A stretch of DNA of 64,000 nt from Candidatus Saccharimonadales bacterium (GTDB taxonomy: Bacteria > Patescibacteriota > Saccharimonadia > Saccharimonadales > Saccharimonadaceae): NCBI GenBank assembly GCA_046462475.1, contig JBKGVB010000033.1, positions 7,192 to 71,191 on the forward strand, read 5' to 3'. The notes beneath the pieces are model-generated. The model saw nothing but the letters and a program-made list of their open reading frames with translations, was not told the origin of the DNA and ran no database searches. Numbering within the stretch: the first letter of the stretch is position 1; each line of letters opens with the position of its first letter. The translations under genes and the position numbers were made by a program. Positions 92 to 58,141 of this stretch are shown piece after piece.

Positions 92-2242
92 GTGAATGGG
101 TATAAAAAAAGAGATGGATTTACGCTCGTCGAAATTCTTGTAGTTGCAATAGTAATCGTCGTCCTGGCGACCATATCAGCGTTTGCCTATACAGGCTATC
201 AGGGTCGCTCGCGAGATGGCGCTCGCGATGAGCAGGCGCACATCATCGCCAATAGCCTCGAAAAATACTACGATAAGAATGGTGAATACCCGAGTGTGGC
301 AGCGCTCGTTGGCCAACCAGGATCAATCGTCCAAAATAAACTCAGCCTTCCCAGTGCAAGCGTCTTGGTATTTCCAGGGGCTGCTGCCGGCACTACAAAT
401 TCGTTAACCCAGTCAGAGTCTTCCCAGTCGGAACTTGCTTACAACGGAGACAGCTCCAACCCAGATGAGCAAGATCAATGTGAAAATAGCGTCACCGGTG
501 GGTGTGACTCATTTGACCTTCAATGGACGTCTGAAAATGGCGATACAAAAGAAATCCAGAGTAATCACCAAGATCGCAGTACGCTCGGCGGACAACAAGC
601 GGCGCTTCCTAGTGCTCCTAACGCCCCAAATATTTCAGTAGATTATGTGTCACCGAATGTCGTCGCGACAGTAGATCCTGTTACCTGCGAAGCAGGCTCA
701 ACGCCCGAATACAAGATTCTTGGAGCGACAAACACAGATGGAAGCGACCCAAACTTTTCAGACTGGTCAACCGTCTCATGGCAATCCGGCACAACCGCAA
801 CCATGAGCGCAACACAGGGCACTTACTACTACTTCAAGGCAATTGCTCATTGTGTAAATAGCGCTGGCGCAAGTGACGATTCAGATGAGAGCGATATCGC
901 AAATTACTTCTATGCAGCCACTGGCACCCCTGTAGTAACCGCTACGATTACCGGCACAACCGTATATGTGGCGATCGCTCCCGTCACTTGTCCAGCTGGA
1001 TCCACGGCTAAATACCAGCTATACGAGCGCAAGGATACGATATCGGCTACAGGATCATTTGCCGTCGTCTCCACAATGAACTTCGGCACGACAACGAATT
1101 ATACAGGAACCGCTGGCGCTACCTCGTCTCCAACAAAAAACTGGTATAAAGCCTACACCCGTTGTGATACGAGCACTACGCAGGGTACCGTTAGTCCTGC
1201 AAGCGCACCCGTATCCGTCGTGTCAGCTCCAGCCGCACCGACACTTACTAATACACCCGCTGGCACAAGCGGCTCAGCCGATTCCGTTACCTGGAACTGG
1301 TCACTACCTGCAACCGCATGTCCGGTAGGTACAGTTATTACCTATAACCGCATCTGGACTGGTGATTACACAAATAAAGGAAGTGGCGCCACGGGTACGG
1401 CTACAAGTGTGGCCCTAACGACAAGCAGTCAAGGCTACCAGTACGGTATGCAAGTCCGAGCGTCATGCGGCAATCCTGTCACAAGCCAGGTACTTCAGAG
1501 TGCGTATAGCGCGAATAATACCTACATTCGCAATGTCGACAGTGTGATATGGGTCTTCCATGGTAGTGTCCGCATACGACGCCCGGACCCAAGTGGACAC
1601 CCGAACTCTATCTACGGACAAGGTGAAATCACTTCATCACGAAATGTTGTCTACCAGGGTGGCATTAATGCCGACTCTACGTATTGGAACCAAGATTATC
1701 CTCCAGCAGGCGGTTGCGCTTCGGGACTTACGAGACAGGTACAATGGAACTGGGACGATGCGATTAATGCCGATAATAGTCAATATGCTGGAGTGGTCGG
1801 AGCATGGTCGCCATGGTACAACTGGGCCAATAGCACGTCAATGGTATTTCCATCGGGAAGCAACTTAAGTGATTACAGCTCTAAAGAGACAGACCGTGAT
1901 AATGGTGACTCTTACGAATTCATGACCCAGGCTCGCTGTATAAATGCCAGCACTGGAAGGGCTGGGCCAGTGAAGAAATCGGATAACTTCGGCAACCTGA
2001 ATGTCACCTCAGGCACTGGCGATTTCCACACAAACTGTGACGTTAACGGGGTCGTGCCATACTGCCAAGGCTGGCACACAAATCGAGGCTCAGGTAGCCA
2101 TGGCGATACTTCAAGTCACCGAGGCCGCAACACTCTCGACACCGTCACGGGAGCATGTTATGACCACACAGCAAACACAGACAATGGCGGTAACTGCTGG
2201 ACGCCGGTAAATGGGCCTAATAGCACCCCTTGGGGATGGTAA
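92..2242 (+). CDS. Giant type IV pilin-like protein (716 aa) with prepilin leader, three tandem Cys-pair modules and a W/N/G/C-rich C-terminal domain
   Basis: GTG start 9 nt after AGGGGAG. N-terminus MNGYKKRDG|FTLVEILVV is a class III (prepilin) signal with Glu at +5. Three ~100-aa repeats carry PVTC.AGST..Y ... C motifs. Confidence 0.8.
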   Translation: MNGYKKRDGFTLVEILVVAIVIVVLATISAFAYTGYQGRSRDGARDEQAHIIANSLEKYYDKNGEYPSVAALVGQPGSIVQNKLSLPSASVLVFPGAAAGTTNSLTQSESSQSELAYNGDSSNPDEQDQCENSVTGGCDSFDLQWTSENGDTKEIQSNHQDRSTLGGQQAALPSAPNAPNISVDYVSPNVVATVDPVTCEAGSTPEYKILGATNTDGSDPNFSDWSTVSWQSGTTATMSATQGTYYYFKAIAHCVNSAGASDDSDESDIANYFYAATGTPVVTATITGTTVYVAIAPVTCPAGSTAKYQLYERKDTISATGSFAVVSTMNFGTTTNYTGTAGATSSPTKNWYKAYTRCDTSTTQGTVSPASAPVSVVSAPAAPTLTNTPAGTSGSADSVTWNWSLPATACPVGTVITYNRIWTGDYTNKGSGATGTATSVALTTSSQGYQYGMQVRASCGNPVTSQVLQSAYSANNTYIRNVDSVIWVFHGSVRIRRPDPSGHPNSIYGQGEITSSRNVVYQGGINADSTYWNQDYPPAGGCASGLTRQVQWNWDDAINADNSQYAGVVGAWSPWYNWANSTSMVFPSGSNLSDYSSKETDRDNGDSYEFMTQARCINASTGRAGPVKKSDNFGNLNVTSGTGDFHTNCDVNGVVPYCQGWHTNRGSGSHGDTSSHRGRNTLDTVTGACYDHTANTDNGGNCWTPVNGPNSTPWGW

Positions 2243-3231: not shown

Positions 3232-6200
3232 ATGGACTTTACGAAGCGTTTTAAGACGCTCAACGATCGGCAAAAAGAGGCGGTAACTGCGATTGATGGA
3301 CCAGTCATGGTTATCGCTGGGCCTGGTACAGGCAAGACCGAACTCCTCAGTATGCGTGCCGCCAATATTCTTCGAGAAACTGACACACTACCAAATAACC
3401 TATTATGTCTGACGTTTACTGAAAGCGGCGCGGCTGCCATGCGGGAGCGACTCGTAAGCATCATCGGCCAAGATGCCTATAAAGTAGCTATTCACACCTT
3501 CCACAGCTTTGGCAGCGATGTCATCGCTCGGTATGGTGAATATTTTTACCAAGGCGCCGATGTGCGTCCGGCCGACGAGATTAGTACGTATGAAATTCTC
3601 CGCGGCATTTTTGAAGAACTGCCACACTCCAGCCCGCTCGCAGGTCAATTTGGTGGTGACTTTACCTATCTCAGCGACACCGCAAAGACAATTTCCGAAT
3701 TAAAAAAGAGCGGACTAACCAGCGACGAGCTACTCGTTGTACTCGATGACAACGAGCGAGTACTCGATACCGCCGAGCCCGTCCTGACTGAGTTATTTGC
3801 AAACCGCATTAGCAAATCGATGCTCCCTCGGCTGTCGGCCATCGCCACCACCATTGCCGAGCTGGAACCTCGCTCACTTCCTTCTAGTATCACACCGCTT
3901 GCAAGCACACTCGCACTCAGCATCGCCCACGCTGTCGATGCGGCAATTGATCTTGAGTCAACCAAGCCTATCACCGCATGGCGCAATAAGTGGCTGGAAA
4001 AGAATGCCAAGGATGAATTTGTCTTCAAGGACCGCAAGCGCCAGGCTCGCCTCCGTGCTGTGAGTAATGTGTATTTCCAGTACCTGAGCCGTATGCAGGA
4101 GCGCCATCTTTATGACTTTGACGACATGGTCTTACGAGTACTGCACGCGACCGAAGTCTTTGACGATCTTCGTTATAGCCTCCAAGAGCAGTACCTCTAC
4201 ATCATGGTTGACGAGTTTCAAGACACAAACCTTGCACAGATGCGCCTGCTGAGCGCCCTCACCAGCAACCCTACAAATGAAGGTGCTCCGAACCTGATGG
4301 TTGTCGGCGATGACGACCAGGCGATTTACAGTTTTCAAGGTGCCGAGATCAGTAATATTCTCGATTTTTCAAGCCGTTACGAGTCAGTCAAGCGCATTAC
4401 GCTCGTCGACAACTATCGCTCAACCCCAGAAGTTCTCACGGCGGCCAGGGAAGTGATTACCCAAGGAAGCGAACGGCTCGAAAGCTATCTTACAGATCTC
4501 GACAAAACGCTCACAGCACATCTCCCGTCCGGCACTGCTGTACGCCTCATAGAAACTGCAACGCCAGACAGTGAACGAGCGTGGCTTGCAAGGCATATCA
4601 AAGAAATGATCAAAAGCGGAACATCTGCACAAGATATCGCCGTCCTCACGAGGCGTCATAACGAACTCGAGGCGCTACTGCCATACTTTACCGCTGAAGA
4701 GGTAACGGTTCAATACGAACGTCGCGATAATATTCTCGAGAACGAACTAATTATCCAGCTTTCTCTCCTGAGTCGCATCATCCATAGCCTTGCAGTTGGT
4801 CAGCATGAGGACGCAAACACTCTACTCCCAGAACTGCTCGCCCATCCAGCTTGGAACTTTTCTTCCGAAACACTATGGAAACTAAGCCTGAAAGCACACC
4901 ATGACCGCGCCTACTGGATGGAAGCGATGAGCGAAATGACCGAATTTCTGCCACTACGCACATGGCTACTCGACATGGCGCAGCAAAGTCTCGTATCGCC
5001 ACTCGAAGTCATGCTTGATCAGCTTGTCGGAAGCTCTGAGACAGACGGTACAGATGCATTTATCTCGCCATATCATGGCTACTTCTTCACTCGCGAAAAG
5101 CGCGACACAGCCTCATCATCGTATCTCGAATTCCTCGAAGCACTGAGAACCTTGCGTCATGAGCTTCGTACGTATAAAAATGGCAATGATATTAAGTTGG
5201 CTGATTTTCTTGACTTCCTCACCGTACACCAGCAGCTTGGCTCTACGATTTCAAGCGTCCGCGTATCAGGATCAGACAACGAGGTAGCCATCCATCTTAT
5301 GACGGCCCACAAATCAAAGGGATTGGAATTCGACCACATCTTTATCGTTGGTGCAGTCGATAGCAAGTGGGGCCGACAAGTCCGTAGTCGTTCACGGCTT
5401 ATTAGCTACCCTGAAAATCTACCACTTATGCCAGCAGGGGACACTTACGATGAGCGCCTGCGTCTTTTCTTCGTTGCGATGACTCGTGCGAAAAAGAGCC
5501 TCACCATTACTCACGCTAGCGCCGATGAATCTGGCTCCGCCTTGAGTCTGCCTGAGTTTTTGGTCGGCAACTCATGGACGGTAGAGACAGTCGAGGAAAG
5601 CTCGGTCGAGCAACAAGTACGCGATGCTAAAATCGCCTGGTACCAGCCTCTTATTACTCCGCTCGAACCGTCCATGAAGCAATTACTCACCTCAACCCTG
5701 GAGCGATACAAACTCAGCGCAACACATCTTTGCAACTTCCTCGACATTACTCATGGCGGACCTGAGCACTTTCTGCTTAGCAACTTACTGCGTTTCCCGG
5801 AAGCAATGAGTCCAGACGCAGTCTATGGATCGGCTATCCACGCCTGCCTGCAACAAGCACACGCGCACCTGATTACGACAGAGCACCAGCGACCAATCGA
5901 AGACAGTCTGCAAGATTTTGAGCATTTTTTGGCGCGCGGCTCACTCGATAAAGATACATTTTCACGTTACCTCGAGCGTGGCAGCAATGCTCTGACGACC
6001 TTCCTGGGTGCAAAAGGGGACAGCTTCACTACCACTCAAAGACCTGAGCTTGGATTCGCTGGACAACAATCGTATATAGATGACACTCATCTTACCGGCA
6101 CGCTTGATCTTGTCGATATCGACCACGAAGCCAAGACCATCATCGTTACCGACTATAAGACAGGGCGTCCGTCTCATTCGTGGAAGGGGAGAAGCGACGG

Positions 6201-6507
6201 CGAAAAGCTTAAACTTCACAAGTACCGCCACCAGTTGCTGTTTTATAAAGTTCTCGTCGAGAATTCACGCGACTGGTCGGCCTATACCGTAACTCACGGT
6301 CGTCTGCAATTTGTCGAGCCGGACGAGCAAGGTGACATCGTAGCACTGGAACTTGAATTTGACTCCGAAGAGGTCGCTTCAATAAAGCGCCTTATTCGTA
6401 CTGTCTGGAAGCATATCATAGCGCTCGATCTACCCGATGTCTCATCCTATAGCCCAACCTACCGCGGCGTACTCGACTTTGAGCGTGCACTCCTTGACGA
6501 AGAATAG
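3232..6507 (+). CDS. UvrD/PcrA-family superfamily-1 helicase fused to a C-terminal PD-(D/E)XK (RecB/Cas4-like) nuclease domain
   Basis: Helicase motifs: Walker A AGPGTGKT, DEFQDT, VGDDDQAIYSFQGA, TAHKSKGLEFDHIFIVG, VAMTRAK. C-terminal nuclease motifs: GTLDLVDID...VTDYKTG and YRHQLLFYK. Confidence 0.85.
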   Translation: MDFTKRFKTLNDRQKEAVTAIDGPVMVIAGPGTGKTELLSMRAANILRETDTLPNNLLCLTFTESGAAAMRERLVSIIGQDAYKVAIHTFHSFGSDVIARYGEYFYQGADVRPADEISTYEILRGIFEELPHSSPLAGQFGGDFTYLSDTAKTISELKKSGLTSDELLVVLDDNERVLDTAEPVLTELFANRISKSMLPRLSAIATTIAELEPRSLPSSITPLASTLALSIAHAVDAAIDLESTKPITAWRNKWLEKNAKDEFVFKDRKRQARLRAVSNVYFQYLSRMQERHLYDFDDMVLRVLHATEVFDDLRYSLQEQYLYIMVDEFQDTNLAQMRLLSALTSNPTNEGAPNLMVVGDDDQAIYSFQGAEISNILDFSSRYESVKRITLVDNYRSTPEVLTAAREVITQGSERLESYLTDLDKTLTAHLPSGTAVRLIETATPDSERAWLARHIKEMIKSGTSAQDIAVLTRRHNELEALLPYFTAEEVTVQYERRDNILENELIIQLSLLSRIIHSLAVGQHEDANTLLPELLAHPAWNFSSETLWKLSLKAHHDRAYWMEAMSEMTEFLPLRTWLLDMAQQSLVSPLEVMLDQLVGSSETDGTDAFISPYHGYFFTREKRDTASSSYLEFLEALRTLRHELRTYKNGNDIKLADFLDFLTVHQQLGSTISSVRVSGSDNEVAIHLMTAHKSKGLEFDHIFIVGAVDSKWGRQVRSRSRLISYPENLPLMPAGDTYDERLRLFFVAMTRAKKSLTITHASADESGSALSLPEFLVGNSWTVETVEESSVEQQVRDAKIAWYQPLITPLEPSMKQLLTSTLERYKLSATHLCNFLDITHGGPEHFLLSNLLRFPEAMSPDAVYGSAIHACLQQAHAHLITTEHQRPIEDSLQDFEHFLARGSLDKDTFSRYLERGSNALTTFLGAKGDSFTTTQRPELGFAGQQSYIDDTHLTGTLDLVDIDHEAKTIIVTDYKTGRPSHSWKGRSDGEKLKLHKYRHQLLFYKVLVENSRDWSAYTVTHGRLQFVEPDEQGDIVALELEFDSEEVASIKRLIRTVWKHIIALDLPDVSSYSPTYRGVLDFERALLDEE

Positions 6508-6522
6508 TAAATACCGTATAAT
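6494..6522 (+). promoter_or_regulatory. Sigma-70-type promoter TTGACG-17 nt-TATAAT reading into the non-coding region
   Basis: -35 at 6494-6499 and -10 at 6517-6522 with a 17-nt spacer. It overlaps the helicase stop codon (6505-6507). Confidence 0.55.
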
Positions 6523-6753
6523 CAAGTGTTAGCTAGTTGAGTGTGCGACTGCGGGAACAAGAGGACGTCTTTTTCGTGTCTCCACAGTCGCACCACTCCT
6601 AGTTCATTAAAAGACAGGAATAGTGCATATAGTCATCCGCAAGTCTCTGACTTTGCGGGTGGGGCATACCCATCCTACGGTGACGGCTCACGCAGCCGGC
6701 TGTTTTAGCGGCCCAGTAACCGGTCACCTACAATGGATGAGTCCCTGCCCAAA

Positions 6754-6863
6754 CGAGATGTAGCTCAGTCTGGAAGAGCACGCGATAGTTTCTCTCCCCG
6801 GTTAACCGAGAGAGAAGCTTCCTATATCGCGAGGCCGTGGGTTCAAATCCCATCATCTCGACC
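6754..6863 (+). tRNA. tRNA-like gene with a 34-nt hairpin insertion in the anticodon loop; anticodon not assignable
   Basis: - Acceptor stem: CGAGATG/CATCTCG.
- D arm: GCTC-AGTCTGGAA-GAGC.
- Anticodon stem: CGCGA (6781-6785) / TCGCG (6827-6831), enclosing 41 nt instead of 7.
- Variable loop: AGGCC.
- T arm: GTGGG-TTCAAAT-CCCAT.
- Discriminator A followed by CC. Confidence 0.6.
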
Positions 6864-7141
6864 GGAAACAAGTAACGGCACGTACCCGAGAAGCGGGCCC
6901 GACTCTTTGTCCCAGAGTCACTTGTTTCCAGGCCCAGTCGTGTGCAACTCTCGACCCCGCACCTCGAGAACACGACTGGGCCACCCCAGCCCGACGAGCA
7001 GAAGGTAGCCCCGGAGGGAGCCTCTTGCTCGTCATCAGCGAGACAAATTCTTTCGTCGCCGGGGAAGGCGATGGCAACAGGGGAATTTGTCTCGCCTAGG
7101 GTGCCGGCGCCGGGGATTCGACCCCTTCGGCGCCGGCACCC
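6864..7141 (+). other. Array of five abutting long perfect hairpins, starting immediately after the tRNA-like 3' end
   Basis: Outer stems, each with a nested inner stem:
- 6864-6873 / 6920-6929 (10 bp)
- 6931-6943 / 6970-6982 (13 bp)
- 6993-7000 / 7026-7033 (8 bp)
- 7038-7050 / 7083-7095 (13 bp)
- 7100-7111 / 7129-7140 (12 bp). Confidence 0.7.
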
Positions 7142-7189
7142 GCTTCTACTTCACACACGCCGACAACCTCGAGAGGGGGTGGAAGCAAT

Positions 7190-7354
7190 ATGGCAAGCAA
7201 GGAAGAAGTTCGTGCTTGGGCTCGCAAGTCTGCAAACGGAGAGAAGCTCGCAGATCACGAGCGAGCTGCAGTCAACCGGACCACTTCACAGGCCGGCAGC
7301 GAGGGCAAGAAGGTCACTCGTCTCCTGGGCGGAAGCAAGGAGAAGGACGACTGA
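7190..7354 (+). CDS. Possible 54-aa hydrophilic protein (MASKEEVRAWARKSANGEKLADHERAAV...)
   Basis: ATG preceded by GAGAGGGGGTGGA 7 nt upstream. GC-rich codons. Too short to appear in the ORF track. It may instead be part of the structured RNA. Confidence 0.35.
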   Translation: MASKEEVRAWARKSANGEKLADHERAAVNRTTSQAGSEGKKVTRLLGGSKEKDD

Positions 7355-7426
7355 CTTAGTCCACGAGACGCCTCCTCGGAGGATCAACGGGCTCATATGT
7401 ATCGTTGATGACGCACTATTCCTGTC

Positions 7427-7481
7427 CGTCTCACCAGACTCATGAATATGTTTCGTGACTCTAGTGAGGCGTTTTTATTTT
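7427..7481 (+). terminator. Rho-independent terminator candidate
   Basis: CGTCTCAC (7427-7434) pairs with GTGAGGCG (7464-7471), including one G-U pair. TTTTTATTTT follows. Confidence 0.5.
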
Positions 7482-7538
7482 GCCTAAAATATGCTATTAT
7501 AAAGACTCGATACAATCTAAAAGCAAAAGGAACGTGCC

Positions 7539-7727
7539 ATGACAGCAGAGTCACTTTCACCAATTCATGATGAATCAGAAGTAATAAAACTTCACGCTGT
7601 CGAGACAAACAAGGAGCTAGCAGCTCGAGCGGTACCGAAAGTCATCGAGTGGGGACCGAGTCACCACCGTAGCGACTACGAAACACCCGACACATCTAGC
7701 CCAGAGGGCCTTACCTATAGCGCATAG
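7539..7727 (+). CDS. Small hypothetical protein (62 aa) upstream of dus
   Basis: AGGAA lies 6 nt before the ATG and TACAAT sits at 7511-7516. The stop is 10 nt before the dus start. Confidence 0.5.
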   Translation: MTAESLSPIHDESEVIKLHAVETNKELAARAVPKVIEWGPSHHRSDYETPDTSSPEGLTYSA

Positions 7728-7736
7728 TTACGTCAC

Positions 7737-8681
7737 ATGACATCATTTTGGCGAGACCTACCACAACCTTTCTTTATTTTGGCCCCAATGGAGGCTGTAA
7801 CTGATGTTGTGTTTCGTCATGTAGTCGAAGAGGCGAGCGCCCCAGACCTTTATTTTACTGAGTTTACGAACGCCACGGGATGGGTTCATGCTGGCGATAA
7901 AGCTATTGGCGGACGCCTCGTAAAAACCGAGGACGAGACAAAGCTGGTCGCACAGCTGTGGGGTGCTGTACCCGAAGACATGGCAAAGCTTGCCACGCGC
8001 TGCCGCGAGCTCGGCTACCTTGGTGTTGACATCAACATGGGCTGCCCAGACTCTTCTGCCGTCAAAGCTGGCGGTGGCGCGGCAATGTGTCGCACCCCAG
8101 AACTTGCCGGAGAAATGATCGCAGCCGCAAAAACAAGCGGACTGCCAACCTCGGTAAAATGTCGACTCGGCTATAGTCAAGTTACTGAATGGCGCGAGTG
8201 GCTCACATTCTTATTCCAGCAGGATGTCGAAAATCTCACCATACACCTCCGCACAAAAAAAGAAATGAGCAAAGTTCCTGCCCATTTTGAATTAATCCCA
8301 GAAATTGTCGCCTTGCGCGATGAGATTGCTCCACAGACTTTACTTACCATTAACGGAGATATCGAAGACAGGGAACAGGGTCTTCGTCTGGTCAAAGAAA
8401 ATCCTGGTGTCAACGGTGTCATGATCGGCCGTGGAGTTTTCCATAATCCATTTTGCTTTGAAACCAACTCAACCACACACAGTCGAGAAGAGTTACTTAC
8501 CCTCCTCAAGCTTCAACTTGATTTATATGATCAGTATTCCAGCCACACCCGTCGACCATTCGAGACGCTGAAACGTTTTTTCAAAATCTATGTCAACAGC
8601 TTTGAGGGTGCCGCAGAACTGCGCGACAAGCTGATGCACACGAAAACTACTGACGAAGTGCGCGCACTTATTTCTGAGTAA
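7737..8681 (+). CDS. dus: tRNA-dihydrouridine synthase
   Basis: FILAPMEAVTDVVFR and GVDINMGCP motifs, with TIM-barrel Dus family length. Confidence 0.85.
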   Translation: MTSFWRDLPQPFFILAPMEAVTDVVFRHVVEEASAPDLYFTEFTNATGWVHAGDKAIGGRLVKTEDETKLVAQLWGAVPEDMAKLATRCRELGYLGVDINMGCPDSSAVKAGGGAAMCRTPELAGEMIAAAKTSGLPTSVKCRLGYSQVTEWREWLTFLFQQDVENLTIHLRTKKEMSKVPAHFELIPEIVALRDEIAPQTLLTINGDIEDREQGLRLVKENPGVNGVMIGRGVFHNPFCFETNSTTHSREELLTLLKLQLDLYDQYSSHTRRPFETLKRFFKIYVNSFEGAAELRDKLMHTKTTDEVRALISE

Positions 8682-36406: not shown

Positions 36407-36494
36407 TGGTACCGCGGGCCGGACTTGAACCGGCACGTCCGTATTGGACATCAGATTTTGAGTCTAACGTGTCTACCAATTCCACCACCGCGGC
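36407..36494 (-). tRNA. tRNA-Leu (anticodon CAA), class II with a long variable arm and encoded CCA
   Basis: Minus strand: GCCGCGG-TG-...GGAATTGGTAG..., anticodon loop CTCAAAA, T arm CCGGTTCAAGTCCGG, 3' end CCGCGGTACCA. Confidence 0.9.
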
Positions 36495-40322: not shown

Positions 40323-41759
40323 ATGACAGTTCGTACTCGTTTTGCACCAAGCCCAACTGGCTATTTGCATGTTGGTGGTATTCGTACCGCTCTTTTTGCG
40401 TTTCTCGTAGCGCGCCAGCATGATGGTACTTTTGTGCTGCGACTGGAAGATACCGACAAAGTACGTGAAGTACAGGGAAGTGCTGAACATCTCATTGCCA
40501 GCCTAAAATCACTCGGCCTAGAGTACGATGAAGGTCCGGATATCGGTGGCGACTTCGGACCATACAAACAATCCGAGCGCCTTGATATTTATAAAAACTG
40601 GGCACAAAAACTGATCGATCAGGGCAGGGCATATGCCGACCCTTACACCCCAGAAGAAATCCAGACATTCCGCGAACAAGCCCAGGCCGAGAAGCGAGCT
40701 TTTCGCTACCGTGACCACCGGCCAGAAAATCCACCTATCTGGGATGGTACGACGCCACTTCGCTTCAAATCAGAGCCAAAAAGCTACTCATACCATGATG
40801 AAATCTTTGGCGATGTTACGACCAGCCCAGAGGTAGTTGACGATTTTATCCTCATCAAGTCCGATGGCTACCCAACCTATAATTTCGCTCATATCGTGGA
40901 TGACGCTGAGATGCAGATTAGCCATGTCATTCGCGGCCAGGAATTCATCTCAAGCATGCCAAACTACCTGGCACTCTACGAAGCGCTCGGTCTTGAACAT
41001 CCTATTTTTGCTCATATGCCACACATCATGAACGAGCAGGGGAATAAGAAACTCGGCAAGCGCGACGGCGCCAAAGACGTGCTCGACTACATCCGCGATG
41101 GCTACCTGCCAGAAGCACTCGACAGCTTTATCGCAACCCTCGGCTGGAACGACGGCACCGAACAGGAAGTCTTTACGATGAGAGAGCTGATCGACAAATT
41201 CAGTCTCGCACGCGTGCAAAAATCTGGCGCTCGCTTCGACGAAAAACGTTTACTTTGGGTGAATGGTCACTTTATTCGCGAGCTCAGTCTGGACGAACTG
41301 TACGCACGCGTTGAATTTTTCTGGCCTGAATCTGCCAAGAAAGCGCCAGATGAATACAAAAAACAAGTACTCACTCTCGCCCAAGACCGCCTAAAAACAC
41401 TCCGAGATCTGCCAGAGCTTACCAGCTACTTCTTCGAGGAGCCGAAAGCAAATCTTGAATTAGTCGATGGCAACAAACAACTTAAAAAACTCACCAGGGA
41501 AGAGCAGGCGACCTTGCTTCAGACGGCACATGACGAACTCGCCAAACTCGAAAGCTGGACAAGCAACGCAATTCAAGATTCACTCAACACTCTGCTCGAG
41601 ATTACTGGCCAAAAACCGGGCATTCTCTTCAGTCTGATCCGTATTGCCACAACCTGGGCGCCATTTAGCCCGCAGCTCAACGACACCCTCGAACTGGTTG
41701 GCAAAGAAAAAACACTCCGGCGCCTCCAAAGAAGTATTGACGAAATAGCAAAATTATAG
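40323..41759 (+). CDS. gltX: Glutamate--tRNA ligase
   Basis: RTRFAPSPTGYLHVGGIRTALF (HIGH-type motif) and KLGKRDG (KMSKS-type motif). Confidence 0.9.
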   Translation: MTVRTRFAPSPTGYLHVGGIRTALFAFLVARQHDGTFVLRLEDTDKVREVQGSAEHLIASLKSLGLEYDEGPDIGGDFGPYKQSERLDIYKNWAQKLIDQGRAYADPYTPEEIQTFREQAQAEKRAFRYRDHRPENPPIWDGTTPLRFKSEPKSYSYHDEIFGDVTTSPEVVDDFILIKSDGYPTYNFAHIVDDAEMQISHVIRGQEFISSMPNYLALYEALGLEHPIFAHMPHIMNEQGNKKLGKRDGAKDVLDYIRDGYLPEALDSFIATLGWNDGTEQEVFTMRELIDKFSLARVQKSGARFDEKRLLWVNGHFIRELSLDELYARVEFFWPESAKKAPDEYKKQVLTLAQDRLKTLRDLPELTSYFFEEPKANLELVDGNKQLKKLTREEQATLLQTAHDELAKLESWTSNAIQDSLNTLLEITGQKPGILFSLIRIATTWAPFSPQLNDTLELVGKEKTLRRLQRSIDEIAKL

Positions 41760-45835: not shown

Positions 45836-45910
45836 GGTCCCTTCGTCTAGTGGTTAGGACACTGGGTTCTCATCCCAGCAACACGGGTTCGACTCCCGTA
45901 GGGATCACCA
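45836..45910 (+). tRNA. tRNA-Glu (anticodon CUC), CCA encoded
   Basis: GGTCCCTTCGTCTAGTGGTTAGGAC..., anticodon arm CTGGG-TTCTCAT-CCCAG, T arm CGGGTTCGACTCCCG, 3' end AGGGATCACCA. Confidence 0.9.
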
Positions 45911-57533: not shown

Positions 57534-57572
57534 GAAGAACCCCGTGCCTCGACCGAGAACACGGGGTTCTTC
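57534..57572. terminator. 13-bp perfect hairpin between the convergent der and GC-rich ORF
   Basis: GAAGAACCCCGTG (57534-57546) pairs with CACGGGGTTCTTC (57560-57572). Confidence 0.6.
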
Positions 57573-57588
57573 TAGGTCGAGACCGGGG

Positions 57589-58029
57589 TTATGCAGCACC
57601 ATCGGGATCCGACGGGTTGTTGAAGATGCTGAGTCCAGCATCTTGAGTATGCGACGGCTGCGGCGCCTCGTCTCCCTTCAGGAAGTCGGGAACGTCGAGG
57701 TCATCGTTTACCTCCACTTTACCGGGCATGCCGGGTTCAGCCATGAGCTCATCCCAGCCCGGGACTGCGACAGGCATCGCCAGATGCGCCTTGATGTTAC
57801 GCGATCCATCGATCACCATGTCACCGAGCTTGCCGACCGCGTGGCCGGTGAAGCTAATGGCGTGGCCTGATGCCTGAGTGCCGGTGAAGAACACCTTCCA
57901 GGTAGTCGCCAGCGTCAGCAGTGCGATGATGCCCGCCGCCAGTGCCAGCTTCAGCAGCTGATCCTGCAGCAGGTACGCCACCACCAGTACCGCGGCTACA
58001 CCGAAGGCCATTCTCTGATACTTGTTCAT
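57589..58029 (-). CDS. Hypothetical two-TM protein (146 aa), GC-rich
   Basis: ATG at 58029 with AAGGAGAG 5 nt upstream. Two hydrophobic helices followed by an acidic tail. Confidence 0.6.
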   Translation of the reverse strand: MNKYQRMAFGVAAVLVVAYLLQDQLLKLALAAGIIALLTLATTWKVFFTGTQASGHAISFTGHAVGKLGDMVIDGSRNIKAHLAMPVAVPGWDELMAEPGMPGKVEVNDDLDVPDFLKGDEAPQPSHTQDAGLSIFNNPSDPDGAA

Positions 58030-58141
58030 GATCTCTCCTTTGGGGAAGGAGCTCCCAGACTCTCTGGAAGCAAAAGGCACGAACGTTTATATATTAACAT
58101 ATTTCGCTATAAAAAGCAATAGTTTATACTATTTAACAGAT

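Follow-up and report, generated by a model that had tools for sequence, protein, structure and literature searches.

A conserved Saccharimonadales transcription unit with a small protein gene inside a structured RNA frame closed by a predicted end-to-end helix

Introduction

GOLLD and ROOL are large, hairpin-rich, tRNA-associated non-coding RNAs, and RNAIII of Staphylococcus aureus is a hairpin-rich RNA of ~0.5-1 kb in which long-range helices close domains and which encodes a small protein. Cloverleaf modules are found in longer RNAs such as mascRNA (MALAT1) and the tRNA-like domain of tmRNA, where they are cut by RNase P/Z or bound by tRNA-recognising factors. Phage morons and accessory cassettes each bring one small gene, along with a promoter and terminator for it and an atypical GC content; morons lie inside a prophage. 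Some Saccharibacteria are now grown with their hosts and can be genetically manipulated through natural competence. To our knowledge, next to nothing is known of regulation by RNA in Saccharibacteria and the other Patescibacteria, and a search of the literature on tRNA-like, structured or noncoding RNA in these groups found nothing relevant.

Among mRNAs, that of hok (hok/Sok type I toxin-antitoxin) combines a long-distance helix between 5' UTR and 3' UTR, tac/fbi, with a sequestered ribosome-binding site, and once closed it stays stable and inert until processing (PMC9841398). In the icaR mRNA of Staphylococcus aureus the 3' UTR pairs with the mRNA's own 5' UTR, at the ribosome-binding site itself, which creates an RNase III target and controls translation (PMC3868564).

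Here we describe a unit at positions 6494-7481 of a 64-kb stretch of Candidatus Saccharimonadales DNA (the window, meaning the whole stretch analyzed). A first-pass annotation had taken it for a self-contained non-coding transcription unit. Its self-contained character stood, as did the strong structure of its predicted RNA; its non-coding character did not, as the unit holds a conserved gene of 54 aa.

Results

The unit and its related loci

The unit sits between a gene for an AddA-like helicase-nuclease and dus. The upstream ORF (3232-6507; 1091 aa, UvrD/PD-(D/E)XK) ends in a stop codon at 6505-6507, and the genes around the unit encode a pilin-like protein, AddA, Dus and ATP synthase. A predicted sigma-70-type promoter on the + strand (TTGACG-17 nt-TATAAT, 6494-6522) matches the consensus at 11 of 12 positions and overlaps the helicase stop codon. 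At the other end, folding placed a predicted intrinsic terminator on the + strand (7427-7481), consisting of a long stem (7427-7471) followed by TTTTTATTTT. The first-pass annotation had proposed both elements, the near-consensus promoter over the helicase stop and the stem-type terminator, and both were confirmed at these positions.

The same unit was found in 13 further Saccharimonadales loci, all syntenic, and always between the AddA-like helicase-nuclease gene and dus. Our comparison set is a small sample of 14 distinct loci, including that of the window, across which the neighboring genes span roughly 60-83% protein identity. Every related locus has its promoter across the helicase stop, followed by a 5' hairpin; a closing helix of 12-15 bp then encloses a small ORF whose ribosome-binding site is occluded, and a terminator abuts this helix. 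A promoter counterpart (TTGACN-17/18-TAnnAT) was present at the equivalent place in 13/13 related loci, and the terminator lay 0 nt from the closing helix in all 13 loci that reach that point. The comparison shows the conservation of the unit, of its frame and of its gene, and we lean towards regarding 6494-7481 as a conserved, autonomous, monocistronic Saccharimonadales transcription unit bounded by its predicted promoter and terminator.

GC content and folding

The annotation had described a GC-rich island, with 68% GC in the line 6961-7020 against ~38-48% in the flanking genes. The line indeed measured 68.3%, but the flanks were not as low as stated, with 50.8% for the helicase gene and 49.4% for dus, the latter equal to the whole window (49.4%); only the short AT-rich spacer 3' of the terminator is at ~38%. 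The interior (6627-7412) has 58.9% GC, and across the 14 loci interiors lie at 55-62% compared with 45-51% for the flanks. Measured against shuffles, the fold z-score of the unit was -13.1 on the + strand and -10.0 on the - strand.

A closing helix and a 5' hairpin

The annotation had reported a 14-nt long-range pairing of the unit's ends, and this was upheld: the 5' strand of the helix, which we call P1 (GACAGGAATAGTGC, 6613-6626, + strand), is the exact reverse complement of the 3' strand (GCACTATTCCTGTC, 7413-7426, + strand), which directly precedes the terminator with a 0-nt spacer. None of 300 shuffles of the region gave a 14-nt long-range inverted repeat. The two arms form the longest long-range inverted repeat of the 64-kb window, in which the remaining 12-13-nt long-range inverted repeats occur at chance frequency. 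Copies of an arm with ≤3 mismatches elsewhere in the window were at chance level (8 found, 4.65 expected, with 8/100 shuffles reaching 8), and the exact 14-mer was found in 111 IMG/VR contigs, as a single chance match in each and without the inverted pair.

Compensatory variants of the 5' strand occur in L001, L006, L008, L010 and L128. In the alignment 90% of cells are paired and double-sided changes affect 13/16 pairs, which 0/500 shuffles equalled; in slid registers the paired fraction dropped to 28-45%. Folding the whole unit for minimum free energy (MFE) recovered P1 independently in 8 of the 9 loci folded. On this small sample the end pairing is both conserved and covarying. In its core, the 13 sequences have Watson-Crick pairs only, with one A.C mismatch and no G.U; an inverted repeat acting at the level of DNA would equally give such a pattern.

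A few nucleotides past the predicted transcription start lies H0, a long 5'-terminal hairpin (6531-6604, + strand) found as an inverted repeat and in MFE/centroid folds, with a counterpart in every related locus. The local hairpin noted earlier at 6543-6551/6585-6593 was recovered as part of this structure, around 6543-6593.

The leader and its tRNA mimic

Downstream of the 5' strand of P1, folding of the + strand predicted a hairpin, Ha (6634-6661; MFE/centroid folds), and a branched three-way domain, Hb (6662-6750), the latter in common with L128 at 79% identity (blastn 6665-6783). The pairs of Hb are kept in comparison with L128, with G.U wobbles that are valid on the + strand only.

The tRNA-like module of the first-pass annotation proved sound: positions 6754-6861 (+ strand) scored 53.2 bits with the Rfam tRNA model RF00005 (gathering score 29). 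It keeps intact acceptor, D and T arms and an intact elbow, with G18G19 and a TTCAAAT T-loop; there is no encoded CCA, and a ~40-nt insert forming an extended hairpin replaces the anticodon loop, so that the module has no 7-nt anticodon loop, U33 or readable anticodon. We therefore refer to it as a tRNA mimic. ARAGORN made no call on 6754-6861, and a true tRNA with an intron was rejected, since no excision yields U33 or a 7-nt loop. The MFE z-score of the cloverleaf was -4.1.

Analogous mimics were found in L014, L016, L128 and L130, and are confined to this closest clade. Rfam tRNA scores were 48.5 bits for L128 and 43.5/43.3 bits for L016/L130, the last two being labelled 'tRNA-???' by ARAGORN, and the L014 cloverleaf had a z-score of -4.3. 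The L016 unit also contains a genuine tRNA-Met. Compared with L128, the mimic shows compensatory changes in the acceptor and T stems, and Hb and mimic together comprise 55 pairs with 8 compensatory double changes, several switches between G.U and Watson-Crick pairs, and 0 broken pairs. The cloverleaf, like P1, has thus been kept by compensatory changes, as the aligned pairs demonstrate.

The five long hairpins claimed earlier were all recovered on the + strand as inverted repeats or folds. H3 (6864-6929), H4 (6931-6982) and H5 (6993-7033) occur in the source genome only, and because they have no homologues in the related loci a function for them is without comparative support. H6 (7038-7095) and H7, a GC-rich hairpin of ~17 bp (7099-7141), are common to L014, H7 with one compensatory change. 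The unit can do without the mimic and H3-H5, since most family members lack them. The interior modules have no further copies in the window; a 13-nt match to the D arm at 41281 falls within a coding region.

Next to the small ORF, MFE/centroid folds predicted a stem (7142-7186, + strand) masking the ribosome-binding site (GAGAGGGGGTGG, 7172-7183), with a local anti-Shine-Dalgarno (anti-SD) sequence, CAACCTC (7164-7170), just 5' of it. In relatives, an anti-SD/SD hairpin of the form CCTC(N4-5)GAGG precedes every cargo ORF. Two 3'-UTR hairpins on the + strand (7371-7409), CCTC-N4-GAGG at 7371-7382 followed by one at 7383-7409, are common to L016, L128 and L130.

A small protein gene

The annotation had seen no credible protein gene in the unit, which does not hold for the mini-ORF at 7190-7354 (+ strand), a conserved and selected gene for a hydrophilic protein of 54 aa (MASKEEVRAWARKSANGEKLADHERAAVNRTTSQAGSEGKKVTRLLGGSKEKDD). 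It was right to treat the large overlapping ORFs at 6728-7445 as spurious, none of them being conserved in relatives. Homologues of the 54-aa ORF in the same synteny have 57-68% identity and keep the frame, the start codon and the ribosome-binding site. HMMER found ~13 homologous clusters of 51-63 aa, a small Patescibacteria family whose named contexts are all Patescibacteria-type; two other matches, P0006 (4385 aa) and P0016 (207 aa), were repeat or low-complexity artefacts. Within the family pN/pS is 0.17-0.84 and pN is lower than pS in 45/45 pairs, with pS near saturation. On these substitution counts, the ORF family is under purifying selection.

The protein is charged and without a membrane helix, and AlphaFold2 modelled it as a soluble three-helix bundle (mean pLDDT 87.5). 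Pfam, PHROGs and PADLOC gave no match, a PDB sequence-profile search gave chance matches only, and the best E-value of a Foldseek comparison of the model with PDB and BFVD was >2. A likeness to alpha/beta-type SASPs seen by eye (TTSQAGSEG...VTRLL) was not upheld by Pfam or the PDB profile search.

A mosaic interior

Conservation within the unit is lowest in the leader, from P1 to the ribosome-binding site. The window has different modules in common with L128, L014 and L012, and the leaders of the window, L012 and L001 show no similarity to one another. Unrelated ORFs stand in for the small ORF in L128/L130 and in L016. L016 and L130 are 96% identical in nucleotide sequence up to the start codon, then carry unrelated cargo, and then are 89% identical again. 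Such alignments make the interior a recombination mosaic, in which close relatives exchange leader modules and even the small ORF.

Searches for known elements

With all 4227 Rfam families at the gathering threshold, the window and the 14 loci gave tRNA only, with three tRNA matches in the window. A permissive scan of 6400-7600 (E ≤ 10) gave tRNA and otherwise chance miRNA/sRNA matches far below threshold, no other family reaching E < 0.09. On this ground GOLLD, ROOL, OLE, HEARO, tmRNA, RNase P, 6S, SRP and riboswitches were rejected. The annotation's suggestion of a giant non-coding RNA of the GOLLD/ROOL type, for which it had recommended such a search with OLE and HEARO included, is thus not sustained. 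Blastn of 6500-7500 against phage and plasmid collections found no match, and a tblastn search of phages with cargo A and cargo B as queries was likewise negative.

A retron was rejected because there is no reverse-transcriptase gene on either side and the 786-nt interior holds an ORF. We also rejected a DGR and an IS/MITE with terminal inverted repeats, given the lack of a reverse transcriptase or transposase, the fixed syntenic site, and a promoter and terminator that lie outside the arms.

Discussion

Comparison with described systems

The predicted RNA resembles hok mRNA in being a small-ORF mRNA of several hundred nucleotides closed by a long-range 5'-3' fold-back helix, here P1 (6613-6626/7413-7426). 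It differs in that its protein is hydrophilic and no small hydrophobic membrane toxin, a consensus scan of the minus strand across 6522-7481 turned up nothing promoter-like, an overlapping frame like mok is lacking, P1 makes no contact with the ribosome-binding site, and the RNA carries a tRNA mimic and many extra hairpins. The locus is, moreover, chromosomal, syntenic and in Saccharibacteria. With icaR it shares pairing of the 5' and 3' UTRs, and its 3' UTR also has a CCUCC motif (7371-7375). Unlike in icaR, the ribosome-binding site lies ~560 nt downstream of the conserved pairing, which is beside the terminator, and the CCUCC, a motif found in the closest clade only, is predicted to fold into a separate local hairpin.

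In its large size, its many hairpins and its tRNA-like sequence the RNA recalls GOLLD and ROOL, but here a selected protein gene lies inside, the leader is not conserved family-wide and there is no prophage context. Like RNAIII, the unit is hairpin-rich, has a domain-closing long-range helix and encodes a small protein; there is no homology in sequence or structure, and no sign of base-pairing regulatory targets in the unit. The mimic shares with mascRNA and tmRNA an acceptor, T arm and elbow without a functional anticodon loop, embedded in a longer RNA. Unlike these, it is placed in a bacterial mRNA leader and its processing is only predicted; its anticodon arm is a closed hairpin of 35-46 nt, whereas in tmRNA the interior RNA emerges there. 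Phage morons show a similar module architecture, GC deviation and swapping of cargo among close relatives, but the present unit occupies a fixed chromosomal site among housekeeping genes, has no phage matches and keeps a conserved RNA frame round its cargo.

A closed mRNA and its alternatives

We give somewhat better than even credence to the view that the unit makes a stable small-protein mRNA whose 5' and 3' ends pair and whose translation is gated. What this mRNA does, and what the tRNA mimic does in it, we infer as follows. The product would be an mRNA for the 54-aa three-helix protein inside an unusually elaborate RNA frame, ordered as promoter, H0, P1 5' strand, a lineage-variable modular leader, an anti-SD-masked ribosome-binding site, the small ORF, 3'-UTR hairpins, P1 3' strand and an intrinsic terminator that would stack on P1. 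The leader of the source genome would comprise one hairpin, the branched domain, the tRNA mimic and five long GC-rich hairpins. P1, flanked by H0 and the terminator, would bury both ends of the mRNA and turn it into a closed loop, which may make it long-lived and/or provide a double-stranded site for RNase III-type processing. (Classical RNase III sites are longer than the 14 bp of P1, which counts against the closed-mRNA reading.) Masking of the ribosome-binding site could keep translation low until refolding or processing, following a logic as in the hok and icaR mRNAs. The mimic would most likely be an RNase P/RNase Z processing module or a stabilising one, freeing the coding part of its long leader. 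Selection favoring stable structures may account for the high GC content, as may biased gene conversion in a recombination hotspot, singly or together; recent foreign origin probably does not.

The RNA frame itself might instead be what functions, as a large structured or dual-function RNA of a new kind akin to RNAIII or GOLLD/ROOL, with the tRNA mimic and the hairpins acting as RNA and the small ORF as secondary or interchangeable cargo. H0, P1, the terminator and the anti-SD hairpin are kept while the ORF is swapped (L128/L130, L016), the cloverleaf covaries, GC is high in all lineages with the ORF included, and the fold z-score is extreme. Yet conservation is lowest in the stretch of leader from P1 to the ribosome-binding site, to the point of dissimilarity among the window, L012 and L001, no version lacks a strong ribosome-binding site or an intact small ORF, the ORF family is under purifying selection, and no Rfam large-RNA model matches; we consider this reading unlikely. 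We are more skeptical still of the frame as a Saccharibacteria-specific RNA chassis, a new large modular RNA class with a functional RNA product that is not merely an mRNA. Equally doubtful is the accompanying idea that recombination through natural competence shuffles tRNA mimics, long hairpins, tRNA-Met and small-ORF cassettes into it; the stable RNA might then be a processed tRNA-like RNP or be destined for the epibionts' high-GC actinobacterial host.

Two further readings take the unit as DNA. The 14-bp arms could be inverted repeats of an invertible segment whose gene is read from the outside promoter one way only, and the arms are indeed perfectly Watson-Crick, change together, lack G.U in the core and are highly conserved in sequence, around an interior that is variable and recombinogenic. 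We nevertheless hold this to be very improbable: a single orientation was seen in 19/19 contigs (14 lineages, many samples; at contig level), the neighboring genes have no recombinase domain, neither strand has a promoter-like site within the arms, and the L016/L130 swap boundaries lie inside the arms and not at them. The 3' arm abutting the terminator in 13/13 loci and the 5' arm following H0 point to an RNA architecture for which an inversion site has no need. The annotation had offered the relic of a high-GC mobile element or phage fragment at a tRNA; taken more widely, the unit would be decaying high-GC debris from horizontal transfer, be it of a host actinobacterium, a phage, a mobile element or a moron, that entered at or together with a tRNA gene. 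The GC of 59% against 49%, a promoter and terminator of its own as in a phage moron, the degenerate tRNA of the window unit beside the real tRNA-Met of L016, and the restriction of H3-H5 to the source genome all fit that description. We find it hardly credible, as the 14 loci are orthologous and share their synteny, with promoter, frame and terminator kept in a fixed position, and structure and ORF are both under selection. Phage and plasmid matches are lacking in blastn and tblastn, as are PHROG matches for the protein; its family, where named, is confined to Patescibacteria-type contexts, the modules are not repeated elsewhere in the window, and no integrase or transposase gene is nearby.

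Implications

As a closed small-protein mRNA, the locus would be a rare bacterial case of 5'-3' closure supported by covariation. Its mix of features, a tRNA mimic in an mRNA leader and a fixed RNA frame with exchangeable contents, is not known to have been described together before. Leader modules and small-protein genes would be exchanged between near-identical genomes while the RNA frame stays fixed. The locus also defines a new family of predicted three-helix small proteins of about 51-57 aa, plus two alternative cargos, and it serves as a warning for annotation that the GC-rich 'non-coding' islands of these genomes can conceal real small genes.

Organization and conservation of the unit

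The GC-rich unit at 6494-7481 begins with a predicted promoter on the + strand (TTGACG-17-TATAAT, 6494-6522; 11/12 matches in a consensus scan) that overlaps the TAG stop codon (6505-6507) of ORF 3232-6507, identified through Pfam as encoding a UvrD-type helicase with a C-terminal PD-(D/E)XK nuclease, i.e., AddA-like. It ends at a predicted terminator in which a long stem (7427-7471) is followed by TTTTTATTTT. Within these limits, GACAGGAATAGTGC at 6613-6626 has a perfect reverse complement at 7413-7426, the two arms of the long-range helix P1. An inverted repeat of 14 nt was reached in 0/300 shuffles of the region, and this one was the longest of the 64-kb window at 150-1500 nt separation, other repeats of 12-13 nt occurring at about the chance rate. 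An inverted-repeat scan located five long leader hairpins, H3 to H7 (6864-6929, 6931-6982, 6993-7033, 7038-7095, and 7099-7141), and the 953-nt RNA had a predicted fold of -442.6 kcal/mol (z = -13.1 for the + strand, -10.0 for the - strand).

Nearly all features reported by the first-pass annotation (promoter, 14-nt repeat, tRNA-like module, five hairpins and terminator) were reproduced by reading 6200-7800 and by scans, and its 68% GC for the line 6961-7020 was 68.3% by count. Its figure of 38–48% GC for the flanking genes was too low, as the genes on either side measured approximately 50%. The unit interior is 58.9% GC compared to 49.4% for the whole window. A second GC island (>60%) at 57540-58080 bears no resemblance to the unit; it has a hairpin at about 57540-57575 and an apparent minus-strand ORF of 163 aa (57589-58080) whose product is hydrophobic at its N-terminus. 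Upstream of the helicase gene, 92-2242 (+) encodes a type IV pilin-like protein of 716 aa that bears a prepilin-type methylation motif at its N-terminus, which fits the pilus and competence machinery of Saccharibacteria.

Retrieval of contigs encoding homologues or the closest Dus proteins added 13 distinct loci to that of the window (L001, L002, L006, L007-L012, L014, L016, L128, and L130; L006 is a Candidatus Saccharibacteria MAG), 19 contigs in all once replicates are counted. In every contig extending far enough, the unit had the AddA-like gene on one side and dus on the other. Each of the 14 loci had a TTGACN-17/18-TAnnAT promoter over or just past the helicase stop, a long hairpin at the 5' terminus (H0), a 12-15-nt arm with its reverse complement 375-786 nt downstream, a GC-rich interior (55–62% vs. 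45–51% in the flanks), and a short anti-SD sequence ahead of the ribosome-binding site, followed by a small ORF. The terminator stem started exactly 0 nt past the 3' arm in 13/13 loci that reach it. The comparison shows the unit to be conserved and monocistronic. Between the terminator and dus, the window also holds an ORF of 62 aa (7539-7727, +), which has its own ribosome-binding site and gave no match in Pfam, PHROG or PADLOC; a small ORF of 49-103 aa occupies the same pre-dus position in L009, L012, L014, L016, L128, and L130.

Compensatory change in the closing helix

The P1 arm reads GACAGGAATAGTGC in the window, L009, L012, L016, and L130, ...AATAACGC in L128 (partner GCGTTATT...), ACAGAGATAGTGA in L001, ACAGAGTTAGTGAT in L006, GACACAGATAGTA in L008, CAGAGACGGTGA in L010 and CAGAGATAGTGAAAT in L007, and every variant has its own matching reverse complement. 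In a 13-sequence alignment 90% of cells were paired, with double-sided changes in 13/16 pairs; this covariation was equalled in 0/500 shuffles, and slid registers fell to 28–45% paired. Independent whole-unit MFE folding recovered P1 in 8/9 loci. Its core contains Watson-Crick pairs only, with no G.U and a single A.C mismatch (in L014). These alignments and predicted folds show the ends of the unit to be joined by a helix kept through compensatory change.

In the window (6575-6612 compared with 6613-6626) and at the corresponding place in 12 loci, the 3' strand of H0 resembles the P1 3' arm (e.g., CTATTCCTAG in L014 and L016, ATCTCTCTGCA in L007) and varies with it from one lineage to the next, so that the P1 5' arm could form a local pairing with H0 as an alternative to P1. 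The predicted H0/P1 5' arm duplex was -10.3 kcal/mol with the arm of the same locus, -7.3 with arms of other lineages and -6.9 with shuffled sequence. Such local pairing may represent an alternative conformation, or an intermediate that arises as the RNA folds co-transcriptionally.

A tRNA mimic in the leader

The Rfam tRNA model matched 6754-6861 with 53.2 bits (gathering score 29), with a 40-nt insert replacing the anticodon loop; ARAGORN made no call there. Such tRNA mimics were found only in the closest clade of the window (Dus 82–83% identical), scoring 48.5 bits in L128 (insert 46 nt) and 43.5 and 43.3 bits in L016 and L130, whilst in L014 the cloverleaf came from folding (z = -4.3). All retain the 7-bp acceptor stem, the T-loop and the elbow nucleotides, and carry a closed hairpin of variable sequence instead of the anticodon loop; CCA is encoded in none. 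Across the mimic and the branched leader domain Hb (6662-6750), the window and L128 share 55 predicted pairs, of which eight have compensatory double changes and none is broken, with several switches between G.U and Watson-Crick pairs valid on the + strand only. Judged by these compensatory changes, strand-specific switches and the lack of any broken pair, Hb and the mimic are under RNA-level selection, and the leader is shown to carry a selected tRNA mimic.

Within Hb, a short GC hairpin followed by GCTGTTTTAG (6684-6708), conserved in L128, was flagged as terminator-like by the scan; it may be either a weak attenuator within the unit or no more than a piece of the three-way junction. Eight loci without a mimic (L001, L002, L006, L007, L009-L012) have in common a leader hairpin whose stem covaries and whose hexaloop, AAUGGC, is conserved and repeats the AUGGC found around the start codon (L001 6234-6249, L012 2986-2999; loop variants AAAGGC, AAUGAC, and AACGAU). 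This hairpin is missing from the window, where the H6 loop is GGGGAA. Two ordinary tRNAs were called in the window by both Rfam and ARAGORN, tRNA-Leu(CAA) at 36407-36494 (-) and tRNA-Glu(CTC) at 45836-45910 (+).

The unit encodes a small protein under selection

The first-pass annotation had seen no credible protein gene here, a view overturned by the 54-aa ORF at 7190-7354, preceded by the ribosome-binding site GAGAGGGGGTGG. Its homologues share 57–68% identity, and approximately 13 genuine clusters of 51-63 aa were recovered when 1.84 billion representative proteins were searched with a profile, with named sources, where given, in Patescibacteria; two further matches were discarded as repeat artefacts. 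Ten loci compared all retain the frame and length of the ORF together with its start codon and ribosome-binding site, differences cluster at third codon positions, and pN was below pS in 45/45 pairs (pS 0.45-0.81, near saturation). AlphaFold2 run on the family alignment gave a confident three-helix bundle (mean pLDDT 87.5), and no relative was found in Pfam, PDB sequences, PDB folds, BFVD, PHROG or PADLOC. ORF 7190-7354 encodes a real protein that is under selection.

Shared modules and replaced cargo

Pairwise blastn matched Hb and the tRNA mimic of the window to L128 (79–82%) and its ORF to L012 (67%), and found no counterpart of H3-H5 in any related locus. H6-H7 are common to the window and L014 (79%, with one compensatory change in H7), and the 3'-UTR hairpins recur in L016, L128, and L130. 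These matches show the interior, at the level of sequence, to be a modular mosaic.

The small ORF, or cargo, differs as well. L014 carries a diverged 45-aa homologue, and L128 (1999-2157) and L130 (1914-2072) encode proteins of approximately 52 aa that contain a CxxCxGxG zinc-finger motif and show a similarity to DnaJ and Anti-TRAP that stays below threshold. L016 has a 46-aa Cys-rich ORF (1800-1940) and then, still inside the arms, a canonical tRNA-Met(CAT) at 1964-2035. Between L016 and L130, identity is 96% over the stretch running from the helicase gene across the leader as far as the start codon; their cargo is unrelated, and from the 3'-UTR hairpin on they match again at 89%. As aligned, this difference is a clean cassette replacement with its boundaries inside the arms rather than at them.

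Discussion

Because its core is purely Watson-Crick, the covariation of P1 alone fits an RNA helix and a DNA inverted repeat alike, and arms so perfectly paired would also suit a DNA segment that inverts between them. We read P1 as an RNA helix because in every locus the arms lie within the transcription unit, directly after H0 and stacked on the terminator, because no promoter-like site was found inside them, because neighbouring genes and locus gene tables hold no recombinase, and because one orientation was seen in 19/19 contigs. Taken with the RNA-type architecture, the single orientation and the lack of a nearby recombinase make an invertible segment very unlikely. That the unit is debris of foreign DNA is likewise very unlikely, as it is syntenic across loci, under selection and without phage or plasmid matches.

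A frame retained while its cargo changes would be expected if the RNA frame itself were the functional product and the ORF exchangeable; we think this rather unlikely, given the poor conservation of the leader and the fact that no version lacks an intact ORF or ribosome-binding site. A modular RNA chassis, with the RNA itself as the product, we consider quite improbable.

Read as a conserved mRNA for a small protein, the unit may work as follows. RNase P, RNase Z and the CCA-adding enzyme use the determinants that are present in the tRNA mimic, which would most simply be a processing or stabilising module able to detach the upstream leader of approximately 230 nt from the rest. H0, P1 and the terminator would form a junction burying both RNA ends, which would make the mRNA closed and long-lived and/or provide a processing site of the RNase III type. 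In the window the ribosome-binding site is predicted to be masked by 7142-7154 or a local CAACCTC, and in relatives by a CCTC-N4-5-GAGG hairpin, so that refolding or processing would have to precede translation. The same logic is seen in the tac/fbi fold-back of hok (PMC9841398) and in the icaR 5'-3' UTR pairing with RNase III (PMC3868564). That GC stays raised in all lineages despite saturated synonymous sites points to structure being selected for, or to a recombination hotspot with biased gene conversion, and not to recent import.

An Rfam scan placed the unit outside GOLLD, ROOL, OLE, HEARO and the other Rfam families; giant RNAs of GOLLD/ROOL type had been the first-pass precedent for one of two readings. 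Membership tests also rejected it as a tRNA, a hok-type toxin locus, a retron or a prophage moron, and we found no literature on such RNAs in Saccharibacteria. The systems working most like it are the 5'-3' closed mRNAs of hok and icaR, from which it differs in its embedded tRNA mimic, in a frame that stays fixed while modules are shuffled and small ORFs can be swapped, and in its host lineage, the Saccharibacteria.
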